Below, in pieces: positions 2 through 10,121 of a DNA stretch of 10,580 nucleotides (the first letter of the stretch is position 1; each line of letters begins with the position of its first letter). Both the position numbers and the translations under genes were made by a program. The stretch covers positions 2,751-13,330 of the forward strand of contig PFAI01000043.1 in NCBI GenBank assembly GCA_002763225.1, given 5' to 3'. Origin of the DNA: Candidatus Diapherotrites archaeon CG10_big_fil_rev_8_21_14_0_10_31_34. GTDB lineage: Archaea > Iainarchaeota > Iainarchaeia > Iainarchaeales > 1-14-0-10-31-34. The notes below the pieces were generated by a model that was not told where the DNA came from, made no database searches, and was given only the letters and a program-made list of their open reading frames with translations.

Positions 2-994
2 TCTTGTCTTCATTGTGCTGAAGCAAACGAAAAATTAATTGACTTAGAAGAAAAATACGGTTTTTTGGAAATCAAAAGATTTGTGTTATCTGAAAACATG
101 GATTTTGTAATGCAGCTTTATCAGGATTATGGAGTTCCTTCAAGTGAATGGGGTTATGTTCCGGTTCTATTTATTGGAGAAAAATATTATGTTGGGGACA
201 CTCCAATAATCCAGAATATTGAAGCAGACATTATTGAATTGCATAAAGCAATGCCTGTTGAACCAGAACCAATTCCTGAAACAGAGCCTGTTAAAGCAAA
301 AGTTTCTTTGGTTCAGCTTTTAGGGCTTGCATTAGTTGATGCAGTTAACCCCTGTGAATTAGCTGTTTTAGTTATTTTAATGACTGCAATTCTTTCAAGG
401 CATCCAAACAAAAAAGACAAGGCATTAAAGGCAGGGCTTGCATTCAGTTCAGCGATTTTCTTAATGTACACTTTATTTGGATTTCTAATAATCTTTGGGT
501 TTAAAACTCTTGTTGGCTTGGCTGACATCCAGACTTTATGGTTTTATAAAGTGCTTGCAGTTCTGGCAATAATTCTTGGATTGCTTAATTTAAAGGATGC
601 AGTATGGTATGGCGGCGGCGGATTTATAATGGAAGTGCCGCAAAAATGGCGCCCAAAAATGAAAGAAATAATTAAAGGAACAACTTCCACTGCAGGAGCT
701 TTTGCTGCAGGAATTATTGTAAGCTTTTTTTTGACTCCTTGTACTGCAGGCCCTTATTTTGTTTTTGGGGGAATTCTTTCAAACATGCCTTTTTTTGAAA
801 CACTTCCTTACCTGTTTATTTATATGCTGGTTTTTATTTCTCCTATGATTGCAATAACTTTAATCACTTTTTTTGGTTTTATGGTAATAGAAGATGTTGC
901 AGGCTGGAGAGAAAAAAACTTAAAAAAACTTCATTGGGTTGCAGGCCTGCTTTTGCTTGGATTAGGCTTTGCAATGCTTTTAGGCTGGATTTAA
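2..994 (+). CDS. Thioredoxin/glutaredoxin-like domain fused to a CcdA/DsbD-beta-type transmembrane electron-transfer domain (5'-partial, runs off the window edge)
   Basis: The frame is open from position 2 (SCLHCAEANEKLIDLEEKYGFLEIKRF...), giving a CxxC motif upstream of the track's TTG at 65. It also has a glutaredoxin-like YVPVLFIG, a Pro/Glu-rich linker, and multiple TM helices carrying the two CcdA-type cysteines (DAVNPCEL, LTPCTAGPY). Confidence 0.8.
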   Translation, partial: SCLHCAEANEKLIDLEEKYGFLEIKRFVLSENMDFVMQLYQDYGVPSSEWGYVPVLFIGEKYYVGDTPIIQNIEADIIELHKAMPVEPEPIPETEPVKAKVSLVQLLGLALVDAVNPCELAVLVILMTAILSRHPNKKDKALKAGLAFSSAIFLMYTLFGFLIIFGFKTLVGLADIQTLWFYKVLAVLAIILGLLNLKDAVWYGGGGFIMEVPQKWRPKMKEIIKGTTSTAGAFAAGIIVSFFLTPCTAGPYFVFGGILSNMPFFETLPYLFIYMLVFISPMIAITLITFFGFMVIEDVAGWREKNLKKLHWVAGLLLLGLGFAMLLGWI

Positions 995-2481: not shown

Positions 2482-3153
2482 TCATTCCTTTCCAATACGG
2501 CTTTTTACTTCTATTTTTCCTTTTTCGTATAATAAGATTCTGTCTGCGTAACCGACAAACAAGCCTGTTTCTAATACTCCGGGAATTTCTTTTGCCTGAA
2601 ACTCAAATTCTTCCGGAAAAGGAATTGAGTCAGTTAAAACATCGATTACATAATTTCCTGATTCAGTTTTAGTTAAGCTTTCATTTGTTTTTCTTTCTCT
2701 TGCTGCGCCCATGCTTTCCAACTGCATTTTGGTTCTCTTCCACCAAAAAGGGGAAACCTCAAATGGAACTACTCCAAACAGTTTTGAAACAAAATTTTGT
2801 TTTCTTGCAATAATAATCAAATCTTTTGCGCTTTGGGCAATCATTTTGTCTCTGACAAAACTCTTTGAATCTCTTTTAATATAATTATAATTATAGTCAA
2901 CTAAGTCAGCGAATTCTATTGCTACATCAACTTCTTTTTCATCTAAAGAGCCAATTTCCAGATTTAATTGTTTTAAAATAAAAGTTATTTCAGCTGAAGT
3001 TGGGACAATCTTTAAGTCTAGTCCTTCAATTTCTTTTCTTAAAGCCATTTTCTTCAAAAACTTTATTCCTAACTCGCTTGAGCCAATTCCAATTGTCTGG
3101 CCATGCTTAATGTATTTTTCAACTAACAATTCAATCTGGTCTTCAGGAATCAT
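2482..3153 (-). CDS. rpiA: Ribose-5-phosphate isomerase A-like protein with degenerate active-site motifs
   Basis: RpiA layout: TIGIGSS, IVPTS, VPFEVSP, GNYVID, IPGVLETGLF. The DGADE and KGGG...REK motifs are altered. GTGAT SD before the ATG. Confidence 0.75.
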   Translation of the reverse strand: MIPEDQIELLVEKYIKHGQTIGIGSSELGIKFLKKMALRKEIEGLDLKIVPTSAEITFILKQLNLEIGSLDEKEVDVAIEFADLVDYNYNYIKRDSKSFVRDKMIAQSAKDLIIIARKQNFVSKLFGVVPFEVSPFWWKRTKMQLESMGAARERKTNESLTKTESGNYVIDVLTDSIPFPEEFEFQAKEIPGVLETGLFVGYADRILLYEKGKIEVKSRIGKE

Positions 3154-3211
3154 TTAATCACTTTATATTACACTGTTTTAATTAAAAAAACTGCTGTTTT
3201 TTTTGTTTTGC

Positions 3212-3226
3212 CGTAAACCTTTAAAA
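3212..3226 (+). promoter_or_regulatory. BRE + TATA promoter of the kinase-trpB2 unit
   Basis: CGTAAACC followed by TTTAAAA (3220-3226). The TATA starts 31 nt before ATG 3251, the same spacing as the YdeI-like gene, which implies a leaderless transcript. Confidence 0.55.
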
Positions 3227-3250
3227 TTACCTTTGTTTATTATTTTATTT

Positions 3251-3283
3251 ATGAAAAGAGCTGAGTGCCTTTGGCAAAATTAA
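3251..3283 (+). other. Trp-containing leader ORF MKRAECLWQN* with candidate +1 frameshift site CTT-TGG-C (3269-3275)
   Basis: ATG AAA AGA GCT GAG TGC CTT TGG CAA AAT TAA lies at the predicted transcript start. The +1 frame is open from GGC 3273 to TAG 3366-3368. Confidence 0.55.
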
Positions 3284-3368
3284 TTCTGATTCTGTTTTAA
3301 TTAATTATAGCTCAAAAAAAATTTTTTCTGAAGGGAGCTGTCAGTACAGCGGCTGTTTTTGGCTTTAG
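3273..3368 (+). other. Second leader segment [31 protein letters not shown] with candidate +1 frameshift site TTT-TGG-C (3357-3363)
   Basis: No ATG/GTG/TTG in this segment. It ends TTT TGG CTT TAG, and a +1 slip enters GGC TTT AGT GAA GTA AAA CTA, where the kinase-like sequence begins. Confidence 0.5.
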
Positions 3369-3867
3369 TGAAGTAAAACTAATTGAATTATCTGAATTAA
3401 AGCCTCATGAAAAAATAAATAACGCAAAATTAACTGAAGTAATTAATTCAATTAAAAAGCATAAAACCCTTTTTTTTCCTGTTGTAATAGAAAAAACTAA
3501 TTTAGTTATTTTGGACGGCCATCATAGAGTTCAGGCATTCAAATTACTTGGAATAAAAAAAATTCCTTGTTTTTTAGTAAACTATTTTTCTGATGAAATA
3601 AAATTATTTAACAGGAGAAAAAATTTTAATGCAACAAAATCCGGTGTGGTTTTAAGGGCTCTGGACGAAAACCTTTTTCCCTACAAAACCACAAAGCATG
3701 TTCTTGAATTATTCAGGATAAACTATAAATTGGAGGTAAAAAAAATGCATAAAATAAATGAAATAAAAAAAACAGGAGGAAATAAAATGAAAAAAGAATT
3801 AACTGAAATAAAAACAAAAAACTCTGGTGAAGGGAGGCGTCTTTGGCGTAATACAATTGAATGCTGA
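3361..3867 (+). CDS. Compact ParB/Srx-fold protein, SerK/SbnI-like free L-serine kinase candidate; no canonical start for the full domain
   Basis: The frame is open from 3301. Motifs [36 protein letters not shown] and LFPYKTTKH resemble SerK (KPHE, DGHHR, DYF, PKTTRH). The track's start at 3511 would remove the KPHE motif. Confidence 0.7.
3732..3789 (+). promoter_or_regulatory. Two strong SD+ATG initiation sites in the kinase frame, not the trpB2 frame
   Basis: GGAGGT (3732-3737) with ATG 3745, and GGAGGA (3775-3780) with ATG 3787. Both read into ...[13 protein letters not shown] ending at 3867. Confidence 0.65.
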
Positions 3868-5134
3868 TGATTTTCCAAAACATTATTATAATATTCTTCC
3901 AGACCTGCCTGAACAACTTCCTTTTCCTTTGAATCCCGAAACAATGGAACCAGTTAAACCAAAGGATTTAGAGCCATTGTTTCCAAAAGAATGTATTAAA
4001 CAGGAATTCAGTTCAGATTCACTTATAAGAATTCCAGAAGAACTAAGGGAACAATACATTTTTTTAGGGAGGCCAAGGCCTTTATACAGGGCTTTAAGGC
4101 TGGAAAAAAAATTAGGGCTTCCAAAAGGAATAGAAATCTATTATAAAAGAGAAGACTTAAGTCCTGTTGGCTCGCATAAGCCAAACACTGCTTTGGCTCA
4201 AGCATATTATGGAAAAAAGCAGGGATTTGAAAATGTTGCAACTGAAACCGGTGCAGGGCAATGGGGTTCAGCTGTTTCTTTGGCGGCAATGTTCAATGAA
4301 TTAAAAGCAGAAGTGTTTATGGTGAGAAGTTCTTTCCAGCAAAAACCTTACAGGGAAATTTTAATGAATTTGTTTGGAGCAAAAGTTTTTGCTTCTCCTT
4401 CAGAACACACAAGCATAGGAAAAAAATTATTGCAGGAAAAAAAGAATTTTAACGGCTCTTTAGGCATAGCCATAAGCGAGGCAATAGAAAAAGCTGTTTC
4501 AGATGAAAAAACTTTTTATTCTATTGGTTCTGTTTTAAACCATGTTTTAATGCATCAGACAATAATCGGCTTGGAAACAATAAAACAGTTTGAATTAATT
4601 GACAAAAAACCTGATGTATTAATCGGCTGTGTTGGGGGAGGAAGCAATTTTTCTGGAATGGTTTATCCTTTCATGGAAAAAAAACTAAAAGGAAAAGAAG
4701 ACTTTGAAGTAATTGCAGTTGAACCAAAAGCAGTTCCGACTTTAACTAAAGGAGAATACAGATATGATTTTGCAGACACAGGAAAAATGACTCCATTAAT
4801 TAAAATGTATACTATGGGTTATGACTTTATTCCAGAGCCAATTCATGCAGGAGGGCTAAGATATCACGGAGATTCTCCTTCTCTTTCTCTGCTGAAAAAA
4901 TTGGGTTTTTTGGATGCAGTGGCTTATTTACAGGAAGAAACATTTGAAGCAGCAAGAATTTTTGCAAACAGCGAAGGAATAATTCCTGCTCCGGAAACAG
5001 CTCACGCAATCAAGGCTGCAGTTGATTCAGCCTTAAAAGCAAAGAAAAACAATGAACAAAAAACAATTGTCTTTAATTTTTCTGGGCATGGCTTGCTTGA
5101 TTTGGCTGCATACAAACAAATGCAGAGGGCTTAA
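3827..5134 (+). CDS. trpB2: Tryptophan synthase beta-chain type 2 (TrpB2, PLP-dependent); probably entered by a +1 shift at 3841-3844 rather than from GTG 3827
   Basis: [29 protein letters not shown] (PLP lysine), [53 protein letters not shown]. No trpA in the window. Confidence 0.95.
3832..3847 (+). promoter_or_regulatory. prfB-like +1 programmed frameshift cassette with a Trp codon: GGGAGG-CGT-CTT-TGG-C
   Basis: Internal SD, 3-nt spacer, P-site CTT(T), A-site TGG. The +1 frame is trpB2 and the zero frame stops at TGA 3865-3867. Confidence 0.7.
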
Positions 5135-5151: not shown

Positions 5152-6891
5152 TTATTTTTTTGTGGAAATAGTTATTTTCTTGACTTTAATGAAATAATAT
5201 GCTGTTCCGGCTAAAACTGCTATTACCAGGAAAAGCCACATCTGGCCAAGCCAGTCATCTGAATACAATCCTTTTATTCTTGCTTCCTGGCAGGCAGTAA
5301 CATAATTTTGTGCGTAATACATTCCAGGGCTTAAAGTCAGAACTTCTTTCATTAATCTTTCAGTTGAACTGCAGTCTTTTCTGAAAAAAGCTTCTACTCC
5401 TTCCTGAAATTTTTGGCCTGTAATTCCTTGCTCGTTTTGTACATTAATTTCATTCATGAATTCTTTTGCAAGGTTTATAGGCATAATAAAGCCGATGTTC
5501 TGCACTTCATCAGAGCCAAAAGTTGCTATTCCTATTACTTCTCCTTTGTCGTTAAATACAGGGCCTCCACTGTTTCCATGATTTATTGCTGCGTCAGTCT
5601 GGATTACTTCAACATTGTTTGTCATTGTTCTTCTTGCACTTACAATTCCTGAAGTAACTGTCGGCTCTATTGTTTGTTTGTTGTCAAAAACAACATCCAT
5701 TCCTGTGTTAGGATAGCCGATTACAAAAACCTGTTCTCCTGTTGACAGCTGGTCTGAGTCGCCTAACTTTAATGCAGGAATGTTTTTCTGGTTTACCTTG
5801 ATTATTGCAATATCTTTTCCCCAGGAAATAGTTTCAGCTTTTTCGTCTATTACCTGTCCTTTTGCTTTAATGTCTGCAGGCCAGGCAATATTGGTAAATG
5901 CTTCTCCCGGCAAAAGCACTCCAGGCAATGCATAATTATCCACATTAATACTGCTTAGTTGACCGTAATTTGAAAGATATGCAATAAGTTTTTCTGATAA
6001 AGATTTGATTACTCTTTGTTTTTGGTCTTCAGTCAGATTATATCTGCTGGCTACATCAGCATAAATTTCATTTTGTATTTGTATAAACCACGCGTTATAC
6101 AATTTATATATTGCTTCTTGTTCTGAAACATAAACTACATGCGCATTAGTCATGATATATCCATTAGGGTTAATCACAAAGCCTGTTCCGCTCATTCCGG
6201 TCTGAACTGTTTCGCTTACTTGTTTTGCTTCAATTCCCTGCAATGGAACAAACTCCAGGTTTTCAATTGCCTGAACAACTATTTCTTCATCCTGAAGCAT
6301 TAATTCTTTTTCTTCTTGAATTTCGCTTAATTGCACACCTGTTCTGATATAAATGACTGTTCCTCCTGAAGCAGTAATATTCATTGTATTATTGTTTGGA
6401 AAAGAAATGCCAAAAGCCAGGCTCATTGGATTCTGAACAACACCATTTAATGAAAGACTGCCGTAATCCATTGAAAGCGTTGAACCTGTAACTGAAAAGC
6501 TTCCTGAATAAACATAGTATTCTCCTACTTCAGGATAATCTTCCCATCCGGAAAAAATTCCGTTGCTTTTATAAGTTATTTCAGCAGTGTAATTTCCTTT
6601 ATTGGAGTTTGCTGCACTGCTCCATGTTCCAATAATTAACTGCTGTGCATTTAAAGTGCTTCCTGTATTTCCAGTGTTCCCTGTATTTCCTGTCTGGCTT
6701 GGAGCAACCATTTCAAAGTCAGGGTAATTGATTGTTCCTGTTATTGTTGTTCCAATAACCATTATTCCTGGTTCATACACTTGTTTTGTTTTTTGTATTA
6801 TGTTTGGCTCTTTTTCAGGCCACTGTAAAGTGTAAGCAAAAGCTCCTGAAACAAGCATTAAAATCAAAATAAACAACAACGTTTTTTTCAT
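5152..6891 (-). CDS. Secreted, C-terminally membrane-anchored trypsin-like (S1C/HtrA-like, PDZ-less) serine protease with an inserted beta-rich domain
   Basis: Signal peptide MKKTLLFILILMLVSGAFA; SGTGFVI, TNAHVV (His), KDIAII (Asp), DAAINHGNSGGP (Ser); C-terminal TM plus basic tail; GGAGGT SD. Confidence 0.88.
   Translation of the reverse strand: MKKTLLFILILMLVSGAFAYTLQWPEKEPNIIQKTKQVYEPGIMVIGTTITGTINYPDFEMVAPSQTGNTGNTGNTGSTLNAQQLIIGTWSSAANSNKGNYTAEITYKSNGIFSGWEDYPEVGEYYVYSGSFSVTGSTLSMDYGSLSLNGVVQNPMSLAFGISFPNNNTMNITASGGTVIYIRTGVQLSEIQEEKELMLQDEEIVVQAIENLEFVPLQGIEAKQVSETVQTGMSGTGFVINPNGYIMTNAHVVYVSEQEAIYKLYNAWFIQIQNEIYADVASRYNLTEDQKQRVIKSLSEKLIAYLSNYGQLSSINVDNYALPGVLLPGEAFTNIAWPADIKAKGQVIDEKAETISWGKDIAIIKVNQKNIPALKLGDSDQLSTGEQVFVIGYPNTGMDVVFDNKQTIEPTVTSGIVSARRTMTNNVEVIQTDAAINHGNSGGPVFNDKGEVIGIATFGSDEVQNIGFIMPINLAKEFMNEINVQNEQGITGQKFQEGVEAFFRKDCSSTERLMKEVLTLSPGMYYAQNYVTACQEARIKGLYSDDWLGQMWLFLVIAVLAGTAYYFIKVKKITISTKK
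6658..6693 (-). repeat. Coding tandem repeat (TGN)3-TGS in the protease linker
   Basis: Degenerate 9-bp repeat encoding TGNTGNTGNTGS. Confidence 0.7.
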
Positions 6892-6954: not shown

Positions 6955-7797
6955 TCAGAAGAAAAGCAATGTCAATCCGATAACAGAAACAAGTATTGCA
7001 ATGTATTTTGTTTTAGAAAGTTTTTCTTTTAAGAAAATTCTTGCAAGAGTTGAAGTAATAATCGGAGTCGGAGCAACTAATATTGCAGTTAAAGAAGCGC
7101 CGATTAAAGAAATGGAATAATTGTATGCAATAGAGCCAATAACTAATAAAACAGCAGAAACAATTAACAGCAAATTAGATTTTTTTTCATTTAATTTTAA
7201 TTCTTTTTTAGTTGCAAGAGCATAAATTAAAATCATGAAAAAAATAGTTGACTCTAAAAACAAGGAAGCATTAAATGGATTTAATTCTAATACAATCGGC
7301 TTAATTAAAGCAAAATAAGCTCCCCAGCCAACAACAGTAAGTAAAGCAAAAACAACTCCTTTGCTTAACCCAAAATTTTTTTCTTTTTTGTCAAAAGCCA
7401 AAAGAAAAATTGCTGAAAGAATCAGAATTACTGCAATCCATTGATTCCAGGAAAGAGTTTCCTGAAAAAAAATAATTGAAATAATAATTGTAATCAAAAA
7501 ATAGTTTTTGGCTATGGCTGTAGCAAGGCTTACTCCTGCCTGATTCATTGCCTTAAAGAAAAAAATTATTGCAGTGCTTCCAATAAAACAAGTGAATAAA
7601 AAGTATGGGATTAACTGAATTGAAGGAAACTTTATTTCAGTGAAAATTATTGCAGCAAAAATAACCAGAAAAAAAACAGCTGAATAACGTAAAACCAAAG
7701 CATTATATATATTTAATTTATTCAAAGCTTTTTTGTCAAAAATTCCTTCAGAACCCCAGACAAACAAAGAAATTAAAGCATACAAGACTTGGAACAT
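6955..7797 (-). CDS. EamA/DMT family transporter
   Basis: 280 aa, about 10 TM in two repeats: LFVWG, FFFKA...VSLATAI, FFQETLS; VVGWG, IFLKEKLS. Confidence 0.88.
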   Translation of the reverse strand: MFQVLYALISLFVWGSEGIFDKKALNKLNIYNALVLRYSAVFFLVIFAAIIFTEIKFPSIQLIPYFLFTCFIGSTAIIFFFKAMNQAGVSLATAIAKNYFLITIIISIIFFQETLSWNQWIAVILILSAIFLLAFDKKEKNFGLSKGVVFALLTVVGWGAYFALIKPIVLELNPFNASLFLESTIFFMILIYALATKKELKLNEKKSNLLLIVSAVLLVIGSIAYNYSISLIGASLTAILVAPTPIITSTLARIFLKEKLSKTKYIAILVSVIGLTLLFF

Positions 7798-7990: not shown

Positions 7991-8812
7991 TTATCTTTCT
8001 GCAAACAAAATTGCTGTTTTTGCTGTCACTTTAAATCCCTTGGATTTCAAAAAATCAATTAAAGAAACCATGTTGTTTTTTTGTTTATCAATGTCATGGC
8101 ATTCCATTGTTATTCTCTGGATTTTATTAAAGCAGGAATCAGGTAAACCGTAAAAAACATTGTATTCTGCTCCCTCGATATCCAATTTTAATAAATCACA
8201 GTGATTAATCTCGTTTTTTTTAAAAACTTCATTTAAAGTAATTGAATTAACTTCAACAAAGTTTTTTTCGCTGAATCCTTTCGAGGTTATGAACTGGCTG
8301 ATGAATTCATTTTGTGCATCTTTTTTTTCACAGCCATAAATTGAATGCCCTCCTGAATGATTTTTTGTCAGAAAAATTTTTTCTTTTCCTGTTTTATCTG
8401 ATAAAGCTAAATTAAAAGGAATAATTTTGTTTTCCAGTTTATTCAATTCAATGTTTTTCTTTAATAATTCAAAATTTTCCGGAACAGGCTCAAAAGCAAA
8501 AATTTTTTTTGCTTTATTTGAAGCATGAACTGAAAAAAAGCCGATGTGAGCGCCTAAATCAATTATTGTTGCGTTTTCAGGAAACTCAATGCTTTCAAGC
8601 AAATACGTGTTTTCAAGGGCAACTTCAGTGAAAAGAAACACGTCAACTGTTTTTGCCCTTAAAATGTAATTTAAGCCGTTGCGCATTTTAAGCATAACAA
8701 GCTTTTTTTTGGTTAAATTAAACCTGGCAAAAAAATATTCATGGAAATTCTTTATTCTTTTAATTATCTTGGGAAAACGCATTATTTCTTCAACTAAAAA
8801 ATAGCCTTTCAT
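7991..8812 (-). CDS. FkbM-family SAM-dependent methyltransferase
   Basis: IIDLGAHIGFFS, AFEPVPENF, LALSD, ITLN and DLLKLDIEGAE motifs. Confidence 0.9.
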   Translation of the reverse strand: MKGYFLVEEIMRFPKIIKRIKNFHEYFFARFNLTKKKLVMLKMRNGLNYILRAKTVDVFLFTEVALENTYLLESIEFPENATIIDLGAHIGFFSVHASNKAKKIFAFEPVPENFELLKKNIELNKLENKIIPFNLALSDKTGKEKIFLTKNHSGGHSIYGCEKKDAQNEFISQFITSKGFSEKNFVEVNSITLNEVFKKNEINHCDLLKLDIEGAEYNVFYGLPDSCFNKIQRITMECHDIDKQKNNMVSLIDFLKSKGFKVTAKTAILFAER

Positions 8813-8828: not shown

Positions 8829-10121
8829 TCATTTTAAAACAGTTTTAAGTTTTTCTAAATCAGAAAACTTTATTTTAATTTCTTTTCCTGAATCCATGTT
8901 TTTCAGGGAAAATTCTTTTGCTTTAAATTCTTTTTCCCCTAAAACAATAACAAAAGGAATTCCTTGTTTTGAAGCAAAATCCAGGTTCTTTGAAATGCTT
9001 CTGTTCAGTAAATCTATTTCAGCATTGATTTTAAGTAAGCGAATTTTTTCAACAAAATCAATTGCCTTTTTTCCATTATTAATTGGAATAACAAAAATTT
9101 GTGTAACAGAAAAATTTTTTTTTAATCCTTTTGATTCTAATTCATCCAAAATCCTTTCCAAACCAAAAGAAATTCCCACAGCAGGAAACTCTTTTTTTCC
9201 TGCAATTAATCCAATCATTTTGTCATATCTTCCTCCTCCTCCAACAGAACTCCTGACTTCTCCTTTTTTCAAAAGAATTTCAAAAATTGGGCCAGTGTAA
9301 TACGCCAGACCGCGCACCAAAGACGGAGTTATGCATAAGTTACTTGTTTTGTATTCTTTTGATAACTCTAAAATTTCTTTTAATTCTTTTATTCCTTCTT
9401 TTCCTTCTTCTGAAGAAACTTTTTTTTCCAGTTTTTCCAGTATCTCATAATTGCTTCCTTTTAATTCAATTAATTCAAATATTTTTTTGATTTTCCCTGC
9501 TTCAATTCCTTTTCCTTTTAATTCTTTTTCTATTTCTTTTTTTGGCTGTTTATCTAATTTATCTATTGCAAGCAATACACCCAGAATTTTGTCTTTTTCT
9601 ATTCCAATTTCTTCCATTAAGCTGTTTAATAATTTTCTGTTATTCAATCTGATTTCTGCATCTAATTTTAATTCTTTAAACACTTGTTCTGCTATCTTAA
9701 TTATTTCTGCATCAGCTGTCATTGTTTTTATTCCAATTGCATCTACATCACATTGATAAAATTCCCTGTATCTTGAGGTTGTTGTCGGCCCGTCCCTGAA
9801 AACTCTTTCAATCTGGTATCTTTTGAAAGGCATTCTTAAAGCAGGATTCAATGCAATTACTCTTGCTAATGGAACAGTCAAGTCATACTTTAACCCTAAT
9901 TTTCTTTTGCCTTGGTCTTCAAAAGAAAAAGTTTCTTTTAGTATTTCTTCTCCTCCGGCATATTTTGAACTCAGTACATCAAATCTTTCAAATACAGGAG
10001 TTTCTATTGGTGAATAACCATATAATTCAAATATTTTTTTCATTTTTTTAATTATTTCTTGTTTTGGAATCTGTTTTTCCGGTAAGAAATCTCTTGTTCC
10101 TTTTGGTGCAATTAATTCCAT
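8829..10121 (-). CDS. hisS: Histidyl-tRNA synthetase
   Basis: PKGTRDF, LKYDLTVP, RYREFYQCDVD, LVRGLAYYTG, GGGRYD, GISFGLERI, and a C-terminal anticodon-binding domain. Confidence 0.97.
   Translation of the reverse strand: MELIAPKGTRDFLPEKQIPKQEIIKKMKKIFELYGYSPIETPVFERFDVLSSKYAGGEEILKETFSFEDQGKRKLGLKYDLTVPLARVIALNPALRMPFKRYQIERVFRDGPTTTSRYREFYQCDVDAIGIKTMTADAEIIKIAEQVFKELKLDAEIRLNNRKLLNSLMEEIGIEKDKILGVLLAIDKLDKQPKKEIEKELKGKGIEAGKIKKIFELIELKGSNYEILEKLEKKVSSEEGKEGIKELKEILELSKEYKTSNLCITPSLVRGLAYYTGPIFEILLKKGEVRSSVGGGGRYDKMIGLIAGKKEFPAVGISFGLERILDELESKGLKKNFSVTQIFVIPINNGKKAIDFVEKIRLLKINAEIDLLNRSISKNLDFASKQGIPFVIVLGEKEFKAKEFSLKNMDSGKEIKIKFSDLEKLKTVLK

Follow-up and report, generated by a model that had tools for sequence, protein, structure and literature searches.

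A tryptophan codon at three frame junctions: a probable tryptophan-sensing +1 frameshift ahead of a SerK-like gene and trpB2 in a Diapherotrites archaeon

The window analysed here is a 10,580-nt stretch of contig PFAI01000043.1 (positions 2,751 to 13,330) from Candidatus Diapherotrites archaeon CG10_big_fil_rev_8_21_14_0_10_31_34. It contains an operon in which a short gene for a protein resembling the free serine kinase SerK is followed by trpB2. The ATGs that precede the two genes lie one base out of frame with the encoded enzymes, and the frames meet at a tryptophan codon, TGG. The SerK-like gene is reached through two such junctions (sites 1 and 2) and trpB2 through one (site 3; Table 1). 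As argued below, the junctions probably act as a +1 frameshift switch that responds to tryptophan. Hereinafter, loci in the window and its relatives are designated L, genomes G, contigs C and families f; the genome of the window is G000.

At site 3, an ATG at 3787 led by a Shine-Dalgarno (SD) sequence opens a leader open reading frame (ORF) of 26 amino acids (aa). Direct reading confirms the original prediction that the leader contains GGG AGG CGT CTT TGG C and that TrpB2 occupies the +1 frame from GGC 3845. The trpB2 frame is closed upstream by TAA 3809-3811, and this stop, GTG 3827, TTG 3857 and ATG 3944 all lie where the prediction had placed them. Specifically, GTG 3827 and TTG 3857 are the only canonical start-like codons of this frame ahead of the conserved motif YYNILPDLP, and ATG 3944 comes later. 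The encoded protein is 53-65% identical to TrpB2 of many archaea and bacteria, matches the PALP family and contains the N-terminal (W/Y)YN(I/V)xPDLP and GAGQWG motifs. In genus-level comparisons, the ratio of nonsynonymous to synonymous substitution rates (dN/dS) of trpB2 is 0.07-0.18.

The start-like codons of the trpB2 frame vary among relatives. The position of GTG 3827 is occupied by GTG in L001, L018 and L104, ATG in L105, CTG in L003 and ATA in L005; in L002 it is AGG, with a TTG one codon earlier. The position of TTG 3857 is occupied by TTG in L001, L002, L003, L104 and L105 and by CTG in L018, and has no counterpart in L121, L122 and L005. The frame of ATG 3787 is open from 3301 to 3867 and is the frame of the preceding SerK-like gene; in G000, the same 26 codons serve both as the leader and as the in-frame end of that gene. 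The start of the leader is duplicated over 42 nt (3732-3789), which adds a second SD and ATG in the same frame and is found in L001 and L018 only.

The SerK-like gene lies behind two frame changes. The layout of leader ORF 1 is the same in the five genus-level sequences (L001, L002, L003, L104 and L105): ATG, six codons, TGG and, two codons after it, a stop. Site 1 reads CTT TGG C in L001, L002, L104 and L105, and CTT TGG A in L003. From GGC 3273, a bridging frame of 29 codons leads to TGT-TTT-TGG-C and then TAG; it is open in 5/5 sequences, and a 3-nt indel in L003 leaves it intact. Site 2 is TTT TGG C in L001, TTT TGG T in L003, TTT TGG A in L104 and L105, and CTT TGG C in L002. Upstream of leader ORF 1, the TATA-like box has a CTTTAAA(A/T) counterpart at the same distance in L002, L003, L104 and L105; the mRNA of the operon is probably leaderless.

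Between the upstream stop at 3298-3300 and TTG 3511, no ATG, GTG or TTG occurs in the SerK-like frame, and TTG 3511, its first start-like codon, is inside the conserved domain. Similarly, no canonical in-frame start lies between the upstream stop and the KPHE motif in L001, L104 and L105. The sole open path from an ATG into the kinase frame thus begins at ATG 3251 and passes through two YTT TGG junctions, and this two-step path is kept in all five readable genus-level sequences. The gene has a dN/dS of 0.16-0.39, indicating purifying selection. The bridging segment behaves differently. Over positions 3273-3359, dN/dS is 0.57-3.11 and synonymous change is low, with a proportion of synonymous differences (pS) of 0.03-0.27, compared with 0.37-0.60 in the flanking genes. 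Because a high dN/dS coincides here with unusually low synonymous change, the segment appears to be constrained at the RNA level; ribosomes seem to pass through it, and what is conserved is the nucleotide or RNA sequence rather than the peptide.

The best solved relatives of the SerK-like protein are the 'free serine kinase' SerK of T. kodakarensis (TK0378; PDB 5X0B, E 3e-11, residues 27-125) and SbnI (E 4e-4). The KPHE/DGHHR region is present, and the C-terminal KTT(K/R)HVL motif aligns weakly. The architecture of full-length SerK is not retained: the core comprises ~128 aa, and the whole protein ~130-190 aa, compared with 242 aa for the SerK chain, and the middle part is missing; we refer to the protein as a putative kinase. 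In L001, L002, L018, L104 and L105, no stop closes the SerK-like frame ahead of the trpB2 leader, and the open frame adds a tail of ~40 aa that ends in ...LWRNTIEC. A single trpB2 leader ATG overlaps the stop of the SerK-like gene in L003 and L004 (ATGA). Because the kinase frame runs unstopped into the trpB2 leader, a ribosome coming from that frame could also reach site 3, and a kinase-TrpB2 fusion may be made if a third slip occurs there.

Table 1. Features of the operon, of the remainder of the window and of the tRNA-Trp genes upstream of trpB2 leaders in relatives
Feature	Position	Strand	Remark
TATA-like box TTTAAAAT	3220..3227	+	~31 nt before ATG 3251
Leader ORF 1, MKRAECLWQN*, zero frame for site 1	3251..3283	+	sequence read
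Candidate shift site 1, CTT TGG C	3269..3275	+	+1 frame resumes at GGC 3273
Bridging frame, GKINSDSVLINYSSKKIFSEGSCQYSGCF then W-L-stop (TAG 3366-3368)	3273..3368	+	sole frame open between sites 1 and 2
Hairpin GCUGU-CAGU-ACAGC (3337-3350) and T5 run overlapping site 2	3337..3359	+	terminator-like look
Candidate shift site 2, TTT TGG C	3357..3363	+	+1 frame resumes at GGC 3361, the SerK-like frame
Putative mini free-serine-kinase core (SerK/SbnI-like, ParB_N fold)	3361..3744	+	Pfam ParB_N, E 6e-6
Second SD GGAGG (3732-3736) and ATG 3745	3732..3747	+	in frame with ATG 3787
SD GGAGG, ATG and zero-frame leader ORF of trpB2	3775-3779, 3787-3789, ending at TGA 3865-3867	+	sequence read
GTG in trpB2 frame, no SD	3827..3829	+	rival start; sequence read
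Internal SD-like GGGAGG	3832-3837	+	3 nt before P-site codon; candidate frameshift stimulator
Candidate shift site 3, CTT TGG C	3841-3847	+	CGT precedes CTT 3841-3843; TGG 3844-3846; C 3847
trpB2 frame, from junction codon GGC	3845..5134	+	Pfam PALP, E 2e-37
TTG in trpB2 frame, 8 nt before leader stop	3857..3859	+	candidate reinitiation start; sequence read
SfLAP/DsbD_2-like membrane protein	2-994	+	Pfam
Ribose-5-phosphate isomerase A	2482-3153	-	Pfam; divergent from operon
Trypsin-like protease	5152-6891	-	Pfam
EamA transporter	6955-7797	-	Pfam
FkbM methyltransferase	7991-8812	-	Pfam
HisRS	8829-10121	-	Pfam
tRNA-Trp upstream of leader, L121	2130-2205		
tRNA-Trp upstream of leader, L123	2175-2247		
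tRNA-Trp upstream of leader, L124	2166-2240		
tRNA-Trp upstream of leader, L130	2098-2168		
tRNA-Trp upstream of leader, L133	2145-2215		
tRNA-Trp upstream of leader, L135	332-405		

Interrupted frames in a metagenome-assembled draft that is 81% complete could reflect broken genes, or errors of sequencing or assembly, and we regard this explanation as highly improbable. The window DNA recurs in groundwater and aquifer metagenomes. Logan contigs from four other runs cover the junction region (X2, 3150-4150; X3, 3150-4100; X4, 3522-4150; X6, 3749-4023) with 0 gaps and no indels listed across it. Specifically, a 1-nt indel that would put ATG 3787 in frame, which the original prediction had named as a possible source of the break, is in none of these independent contigs. 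Since the four runs may sample one and the same population, the stronger argument against error is conservation: the same junctions are found in 13 genomes and two metagenome contigs of diverged sequence. In addition, both genes are under purifying selection. Thus, an assembly artefact is ruled out as the cause of the frame break. Transcriptional slippage was also considered and rejected, as none of the sites is a long homopolymer and the A-runs of L003 precede a +1-frame stop.

To define the distribution of the junctions, the order (196 genomes) and the class (215 genomes) were searched, and TrpB2 matches were kept at E <= 1e-40. TrpB2 is held by 19 of the 215 class genomes, and the 5' regions of all 20 loci were read in three frames. 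The shifted layout, namely an SD and ATG one base behind the trpB2 frame with a single TGG at the overlap, is present in 13 of these 19 genomes (14 loci, three families), comprising G000, G001 (twice), G005, G007, G076, G077, G080, G081, G132, G139, G143, G145 and G154. The remaining six genomes (G008, G010, G083, G144, G146 and G166) have an ordinary in-frame SD and ATG. Among metagenome contigs, two match the window exactly at the junction, another two, of diverged sequence, are shifted (L104 and L105), ten that are less closely related (46-59% identity) have ordinary starts, and the 5' end is missing from two fragments. The expectation that relatives would preserve a zero-frame SD and ATG together with the TGG is thus borne out in 13/19 genomes and two contigs.

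The two trpB2 copies of the G001 bin (L002 on contig C30 and L018 on contig C21) are 91% and 88% identical to that of the window, and both are shifted. They could represent two strains in one bin or a real duplication.

The loci provide 16 distinct trpB2 junctions. All 16 have an SD and ATG in the zero frame and a TGG at the junction; the codon before TGG, which would occupy the P site, is CTT at 11, GCC at four and GTT at one, and the base after TGG is C at 15/16. CTT TGG C is exact at ten of the 16. Most have a purine-rich GGGAG-like run 3-5 nt upstream of the P-site codon, which in relatives reads GGGAGG, GGGAG, GGGGAG, GAGGGGTGA, GAGGTGA or AAGGGA. The run is weak in L131 and L133 (only AGTGAG), and none is near either SerK site. 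Of the originally proposed motif GGAGG-NNN-CTT-TGG-C, the TGG is invariant, an SD-like run is present at most junctions with a spacing of 3-5 nt, and CTT is found at 11/16; some orthologues are ordinary. If UGG is placed in the A site, which is possible everywhere (16 trpB2 junctions and 11 SerK-leader sites), re-pairing of the P-site tRNA from CUU or UUU to UUU would be available at 11/16 trpB2 junctions and at all 11 SerK-leader sites; it would not be clean at the four GCC junctions or at the single GTT junction.

The conservation of the site and of the frame layout exceeds coding needs. The synonymous divergence (dS) between genus-level trpB2 genes is 0.5-1.0, so the identity of the junctions is not a mere shortage of divergence time. 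In L128, L131 and L132, from family f10, a TAG in the +1 frame lies directly next to the site and the zero frame ends 2-3 codons further on; thus any frame change is confined to 3-4 codons that include the TGG. In G008, the SerK-like gene comes first in the operon and is preceded by a leader that starts MKRRDLLW and has CTT TGG G, and trpB2 has an ordinary ATG overlapping the kinase stop. In G007, the gene order is reversed, the leader precedes trpB2, and the kinase gene has an ordinary ATG. The Trp-codon junction is therefore on the first gene of the pair in both genomes. An RRDL(L/A)W leader is common to the kinase gene of G008 and to trpB2 of G007, G132, G145 and G154.

Outside the order, the layout is different. 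Of 79 outgroup TrpB2 loci from many phyla, 69 were located by a motif regular expression; the ten loci at which it failed, together with L116 and L117, were left out of the counts, and L006/L127 and L124 were inspected manually. At each of the 69, an in-frame start, which is ATG at 61 loci, precedes the motif by 12-30 codons; the usual N-terminal length before the motif is ~13-19 codons, and none of the 69 has an ATG ORF in the -1 frame with a TGG at its junction. Within the order, the conceptual +1 products align colinearly with the in-frame N-termini of unshifted orthologues, which are rich in K, N and E. G144 starts MKTENKKESELSKKVIML, for example, and in G139 the leader MENKKSELA continues beyond the junction as GYNDLGKKVVML. 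At the DNA level, G144 (L129) corresponds to G139 (L131) minus 19 nt (3n+1) that include the site and lie between two GAkTTAG repeats. G166 has a long K/N/E-rich extension in frame. Because the conceptual products are colinear with these proteins, the leader peptide is homologous to a real N-terminal extension of TrpB2 in the order. In the TrpB2 tree, all 21 sequences of the order group in a single clade, and at least four state changes are required. The shifted state is on both deep branches, and so it is old and maintained.

The operon could be translated with no frameshift at all. TrpB2 would then be initiated separately, at a weak in-frame codon or by reinitiation near TTG 3857, and the leader ORF would modulate TrpB2 initiation, or transcription in the manner of attenuation. 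We consider this unlikely, although a number of observations favour it or otherwise weigh against frameshifting. The original claim that trpB2 has no in-frame start stands for six of 15 tabulated junctions; the other nine have a canonical start at a plausible distance, 12-30 codons before the YYN motif, and L124 has an ATG. GTG 3827, 19 codons before the motif, would provide the usual TrpB2 N-terminal length; L105 and L121 have ATG at this position, and in L105 it is combined with GTT, which is poorly slippery. In the f10 genomes, an ATG ten codons before the motif is conserved, the heptamer GCC UGG C permits only two of three re-pairings, and both SerK sites lack a nearby SD-like element. The missing SD at GTG 3827 is weak evidence against initiation there, because SD use is modest in this genome, in which many genes have none: 206 of 631 long ORFs have an SD-preceded start, compared with a background of 4.5% per start-like codon. 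Long ORFs also contain TTT-TGG 83 times and CTT-TGG 14 times in frame; since many genes tolerate them, the heptamer alone is not very shift-prone. The hairpin and T5 run that overlap site 2 could hint at termination control, though weakly. A tRNA-Trp gene was not found in the 81%-complete G000 by aragorn or by BLAST with the tRNA-Trp of a relative, and likewise not in G001, G005 and G008 by aragorn or BLAST. Finally, the relatives are kin, so the counts overstate independence.

Separate initiation would account for part of the trpB2 data, but it does not explain several features of the loci. In L003, L005 and L122, no canonical start is suitably placed. The SerK-like gene of L001, L104 and L105 shows the overlap of zero and +1 frames in full, having no start at all, and yet it is under purifying selection. 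The supposed start varies in position and identity among relatives. Moreover, a ribosome paused at UGG would probably cover a start 15 nt upstream, so starvation would lower, not raise, the synthesis of TrpB2 if initiation were separate.

RNA structure also offers little to an attenuation-style role of the leader. The hairpin at 3337-3359 has a stem of 4-5 bp in 5/5 sequences, and the T5 run is present in 4/5 and absent in L002. No Rfam match was found over 3100-4000. Conserved alternative hairpins were not found, the consensus fold of the SerK leader is weak (-11.7 kcal/mol), and single-sequence folds are not unusual (z-scores 0.37, -0.57 and -0.43). The two or more cognate codons and the mutually exclusive terminator and antiterminator hairpins of a trpL-type leader were both looked for; each leader has exactly one TGG, and no such hairpins were found. 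Classical attenuation was therefore rejected as the main mechanism, the hairpin being small, its T-run missing in L002 and the folds ordinary. A prfB-like shift at the stop codon of the leader was also rejected, as the sequence around that stop is not conserved and in L122 no zero-frame stop is close by.

A genome-wide scan of G000, comprising 4,174 junction-like positions of any codon, gave no further convincing TGG junction, and the YTT-TGG candidates inspected elsewhere have their own in-frame starts or are short shadow ORFs. Avoidance of the heptamer was considered as additional support and set aside. CTT-TGG occurs 14 times versus 31 expected and TTT-TGG 83 times versus 100, and this bias is not specific to TGG: the preference for NNC over NNT in G000 is 0.86 before AGG, 0.76 before AGA, 0.73 before AGC, 0.63 before TGG and 0.59 before TGC, compared with 0.23 overall. 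The depletion of NNT before TGG is not used as support because it reflects a general context bias.

The pathway context points to tryptophan salvage. TrpA and indole-3-glycerol-phosphate synthase (IGPS) were not found in the five family genomes (81-96% complete), so TrpB2 is probably a stand-alone salvage enzyme. TrpB2 enzymes prefer O-phosphoserine. The protein TK0378, annotated as ParB, was described as a kinase that phosphorylates free serine (PMC5120207). By its similarity to this enzyme, the SerK-like protein would make O-phosphoserine, and TrpB2 would join O-phosphoserine or serine with scavenged indole to form tryptophan.

From the architecture and its conservation, which are read directly from the DNA, we infer ribosomal slipping, its dependence on charged tRNA-Trp and these enzyme substrates. 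Some +1 recoding at the UGG junctions is, in our judgement, quite likely. The fuller proposal, that a tryptophan-sensing +1 frameshift at the Trp codon switches on the operon that converts O-phosphoserine and indole to tryptophan, is probable on balance. Translation would start at the ATGs that lie one base out of frame with both enzymes. At YUU UGG N, the peptidyl-tRNA (Leu-GAG on CUU, Phe on UUU) would occupy the P site, with UGG in the still empty A site; a tRNA-Leu(GAG), the reader of CUU, is present in G000. When charged tRNA-Trp is plentiful, UGG would be read and the nearby stop reached, giving products of 26 aa and 10 aa. When it is scarce, the P-site tRNA would re-pair one base downstream on UUU, a Gly codon (GGN) would be read next, and the enzyme would be made. 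TrpB2 would require one slip (3841-3847), possibly aided by the GGGAGG 3 nt upstream, and the kinase two slips (3269 and 3357); serial sites would steepen the response.

All of the architectural evidence for frameshifting applies as well to a frameshift that senses nothing, i.e. constitutive +1 recoding that sets the enzyme level or yields two products, or quadruplet reading of UGGN. Four-base reading of UGGC would give the same downstream frame, and a precedent of a related kind is described in a 2016 review, namely +1 shifts at UGG_(A) in glass-sponge mitochondria, where the anticodon loop of a tRNA-Gly is enlarged (PMC5009743). Nevertheless, we regard a shift without sensing as distinctly unlikely. 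The A-site codon is always UGG, the only Trp codon and just 0.8% of codons, even though any codon starting with U permits the slip, and the gated genes make tryptophan. In addition, the anticodon loops are of normal size (7 nt) in the tRNA-Trp(CCA) genes that six relatives from families f27 and f10 carry on the strand of the trpB2 leader, 21-60 nt upstream of it. The corresponding position is occupied in L128 by a tRNA-Trp copy with a damaged anticodon loop, and in L131 and L132 by AT-rich tRNA-like relics, identified by aragorn as tRNA-Lys(ttt). A lone candidate for a four-base anticodon ('cggg', G000 contig C13, 3973-4151) was rejected, because with introns allowed it is a tRNA-Pro(GGG) with a 101-nt intron.

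A tryptophan-sensing frameshift would share features with several known systems. In E. coli prfB, the +1 shift takes place at CUU UGA C, and an internal SD precedes the site by 3 nt. Similarly, site 3 has CUU in the P site for re-pairing to UUU and an SD-like purine run 3 nt upstream (GGGAGG-CGT-CTT); a slow A site would open the window for slipping, and in both cases a shortage of the factor that reads the A site would raise the synthesis of what relieves the shortage. The differences are that the A-site codon here is the sense codon UGG rather than UGA, that the sensed molecule would be charged tRNA-Trp, and that the host is an archaeon, the product a metabolic enzyme and the number of sites three per operon, the SerK sites having no SD-like element. 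In the trpL system, a short ORF contains Trp codons in tandem, terminator and antiterminator hairpins form as alternatives, and translation of the structural gene starts separately. Like trpL, the present leaders are short upstream ORFs in which a Trp codon would read charged tRNA-Trp to control genes of tryptophan synthesis; unlike trpL, each has a single UGG, placed exactly where the frames meet, conserved alternative hairpins were not found, and the SerK-like gene lacks a start of its own. In antizyme, polyamines are sensed by a +1 shift with a stop codon in the A site, and high product stimulates the shift. The proposed switch likewise would be a metabolite-responsive +1 shift that closes negative feedback on its own pathway, with the differences that low product would stimulate it and that the A site contains the sense codon UGG.

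Yeast provides the closest heptamers, CUU AGG C in Ty1 and ABP140 and GCG AGU U in Ty3 (PMC5009743). The Ty1 heptamer is one base off the sequence at site 3, and in both a Leu tRNA in the P site would slip beside a slow A-site sense codon to make GGC (Gly) the +1 codon. The GCC UGG C variant of f10 resembles Ty3 in having an Ala P-site codon with poor re-pairing. In contrast to the proposed metabolic feedback, Ty1 is eukaryotic, relies on a constitutively rare tRNA-Arg and sets the ratio of Gag to Pol. A limiting A-site aminoacyl-tRNA is also the proposed cause of the hungry-codon shifting described in E. coli by Gallant and co-workers (PMC5009743); as presented there, that case is a laboratory or error phenomenon, whereas the shift considered here would be a programmed route to two enzymes. 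The same 2016 review states of functional starvation-specific trans-frame proteins that 'no examples are known', and it lists archaeal recoding of other kinds and the sponge mitochondrial shifts at the rare UGG_(A) (PMC5009743).

The draft genome comprises 1.04 Mb in 65 contigs, with 30.8% G+C. Because an eRF1 domain is present and the bacterial PCRF domain was not found in profile searches of the genome, the host is assigned to the archaea; for 16S rRNA, neither the archaeal nor the bacterial model matched the draft genome. Two eRF1_2 matches ~1.5 kb apart are located in one 910-aa open frame (contig C51, 7141-9039), and this release-factor gene may carry an insertion, perhaps an intein. Other than the operon, the window contains the genes listed in Table 1 and genes for tRNA-Glu, tRNA-Met, tRNA-Thr and tRNA-His.

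The original prediction held that no natural archaeal example of such a switch had been described. In agreement with this, our search of open-access full text (PMC and bioRxiv) found no paper describing a programmed frameshift at trpB2 or at a Trp codon in archaea. What would be new here is the sensor; the type of mechanism, +1 frameshifting of the prfB and Ty1 type, is already known. To our knowledge, bacterial attenuation and T-boxes have no established archaeal counterpart, and translational sensing of amino acids in archaea is little understood.

The junctions would also bear on annotation. Gene callers would give wrong starts for trpB2 and miss or truncate the SerK-like gene, with the result that salvage capacity would be under-called in DPANN-type genomes. 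If the proposed mechanism is true, it would be the first natural case of amino-acid-sensing programmed frameshifting and an archaeal functional counterpart of bacterial attenuation, and hungry-codon frameshifting, seen in the laboratory, would become a real regulatory device. More tentatively, and as a possibility that we rate below an even chance, an order of archaea with small genomes would use a Trp codon as a switch, arranged in this operon as a cascade of three sites, two of them in series before the kinase and one before TrpB2, with a fusion enzyme as a possible product. As charged tRNA-Trp declines, such a cascade would switch on the salvage of indole to tryptophan steeply. Such a hungry-codon switch may be ancestral to the order.

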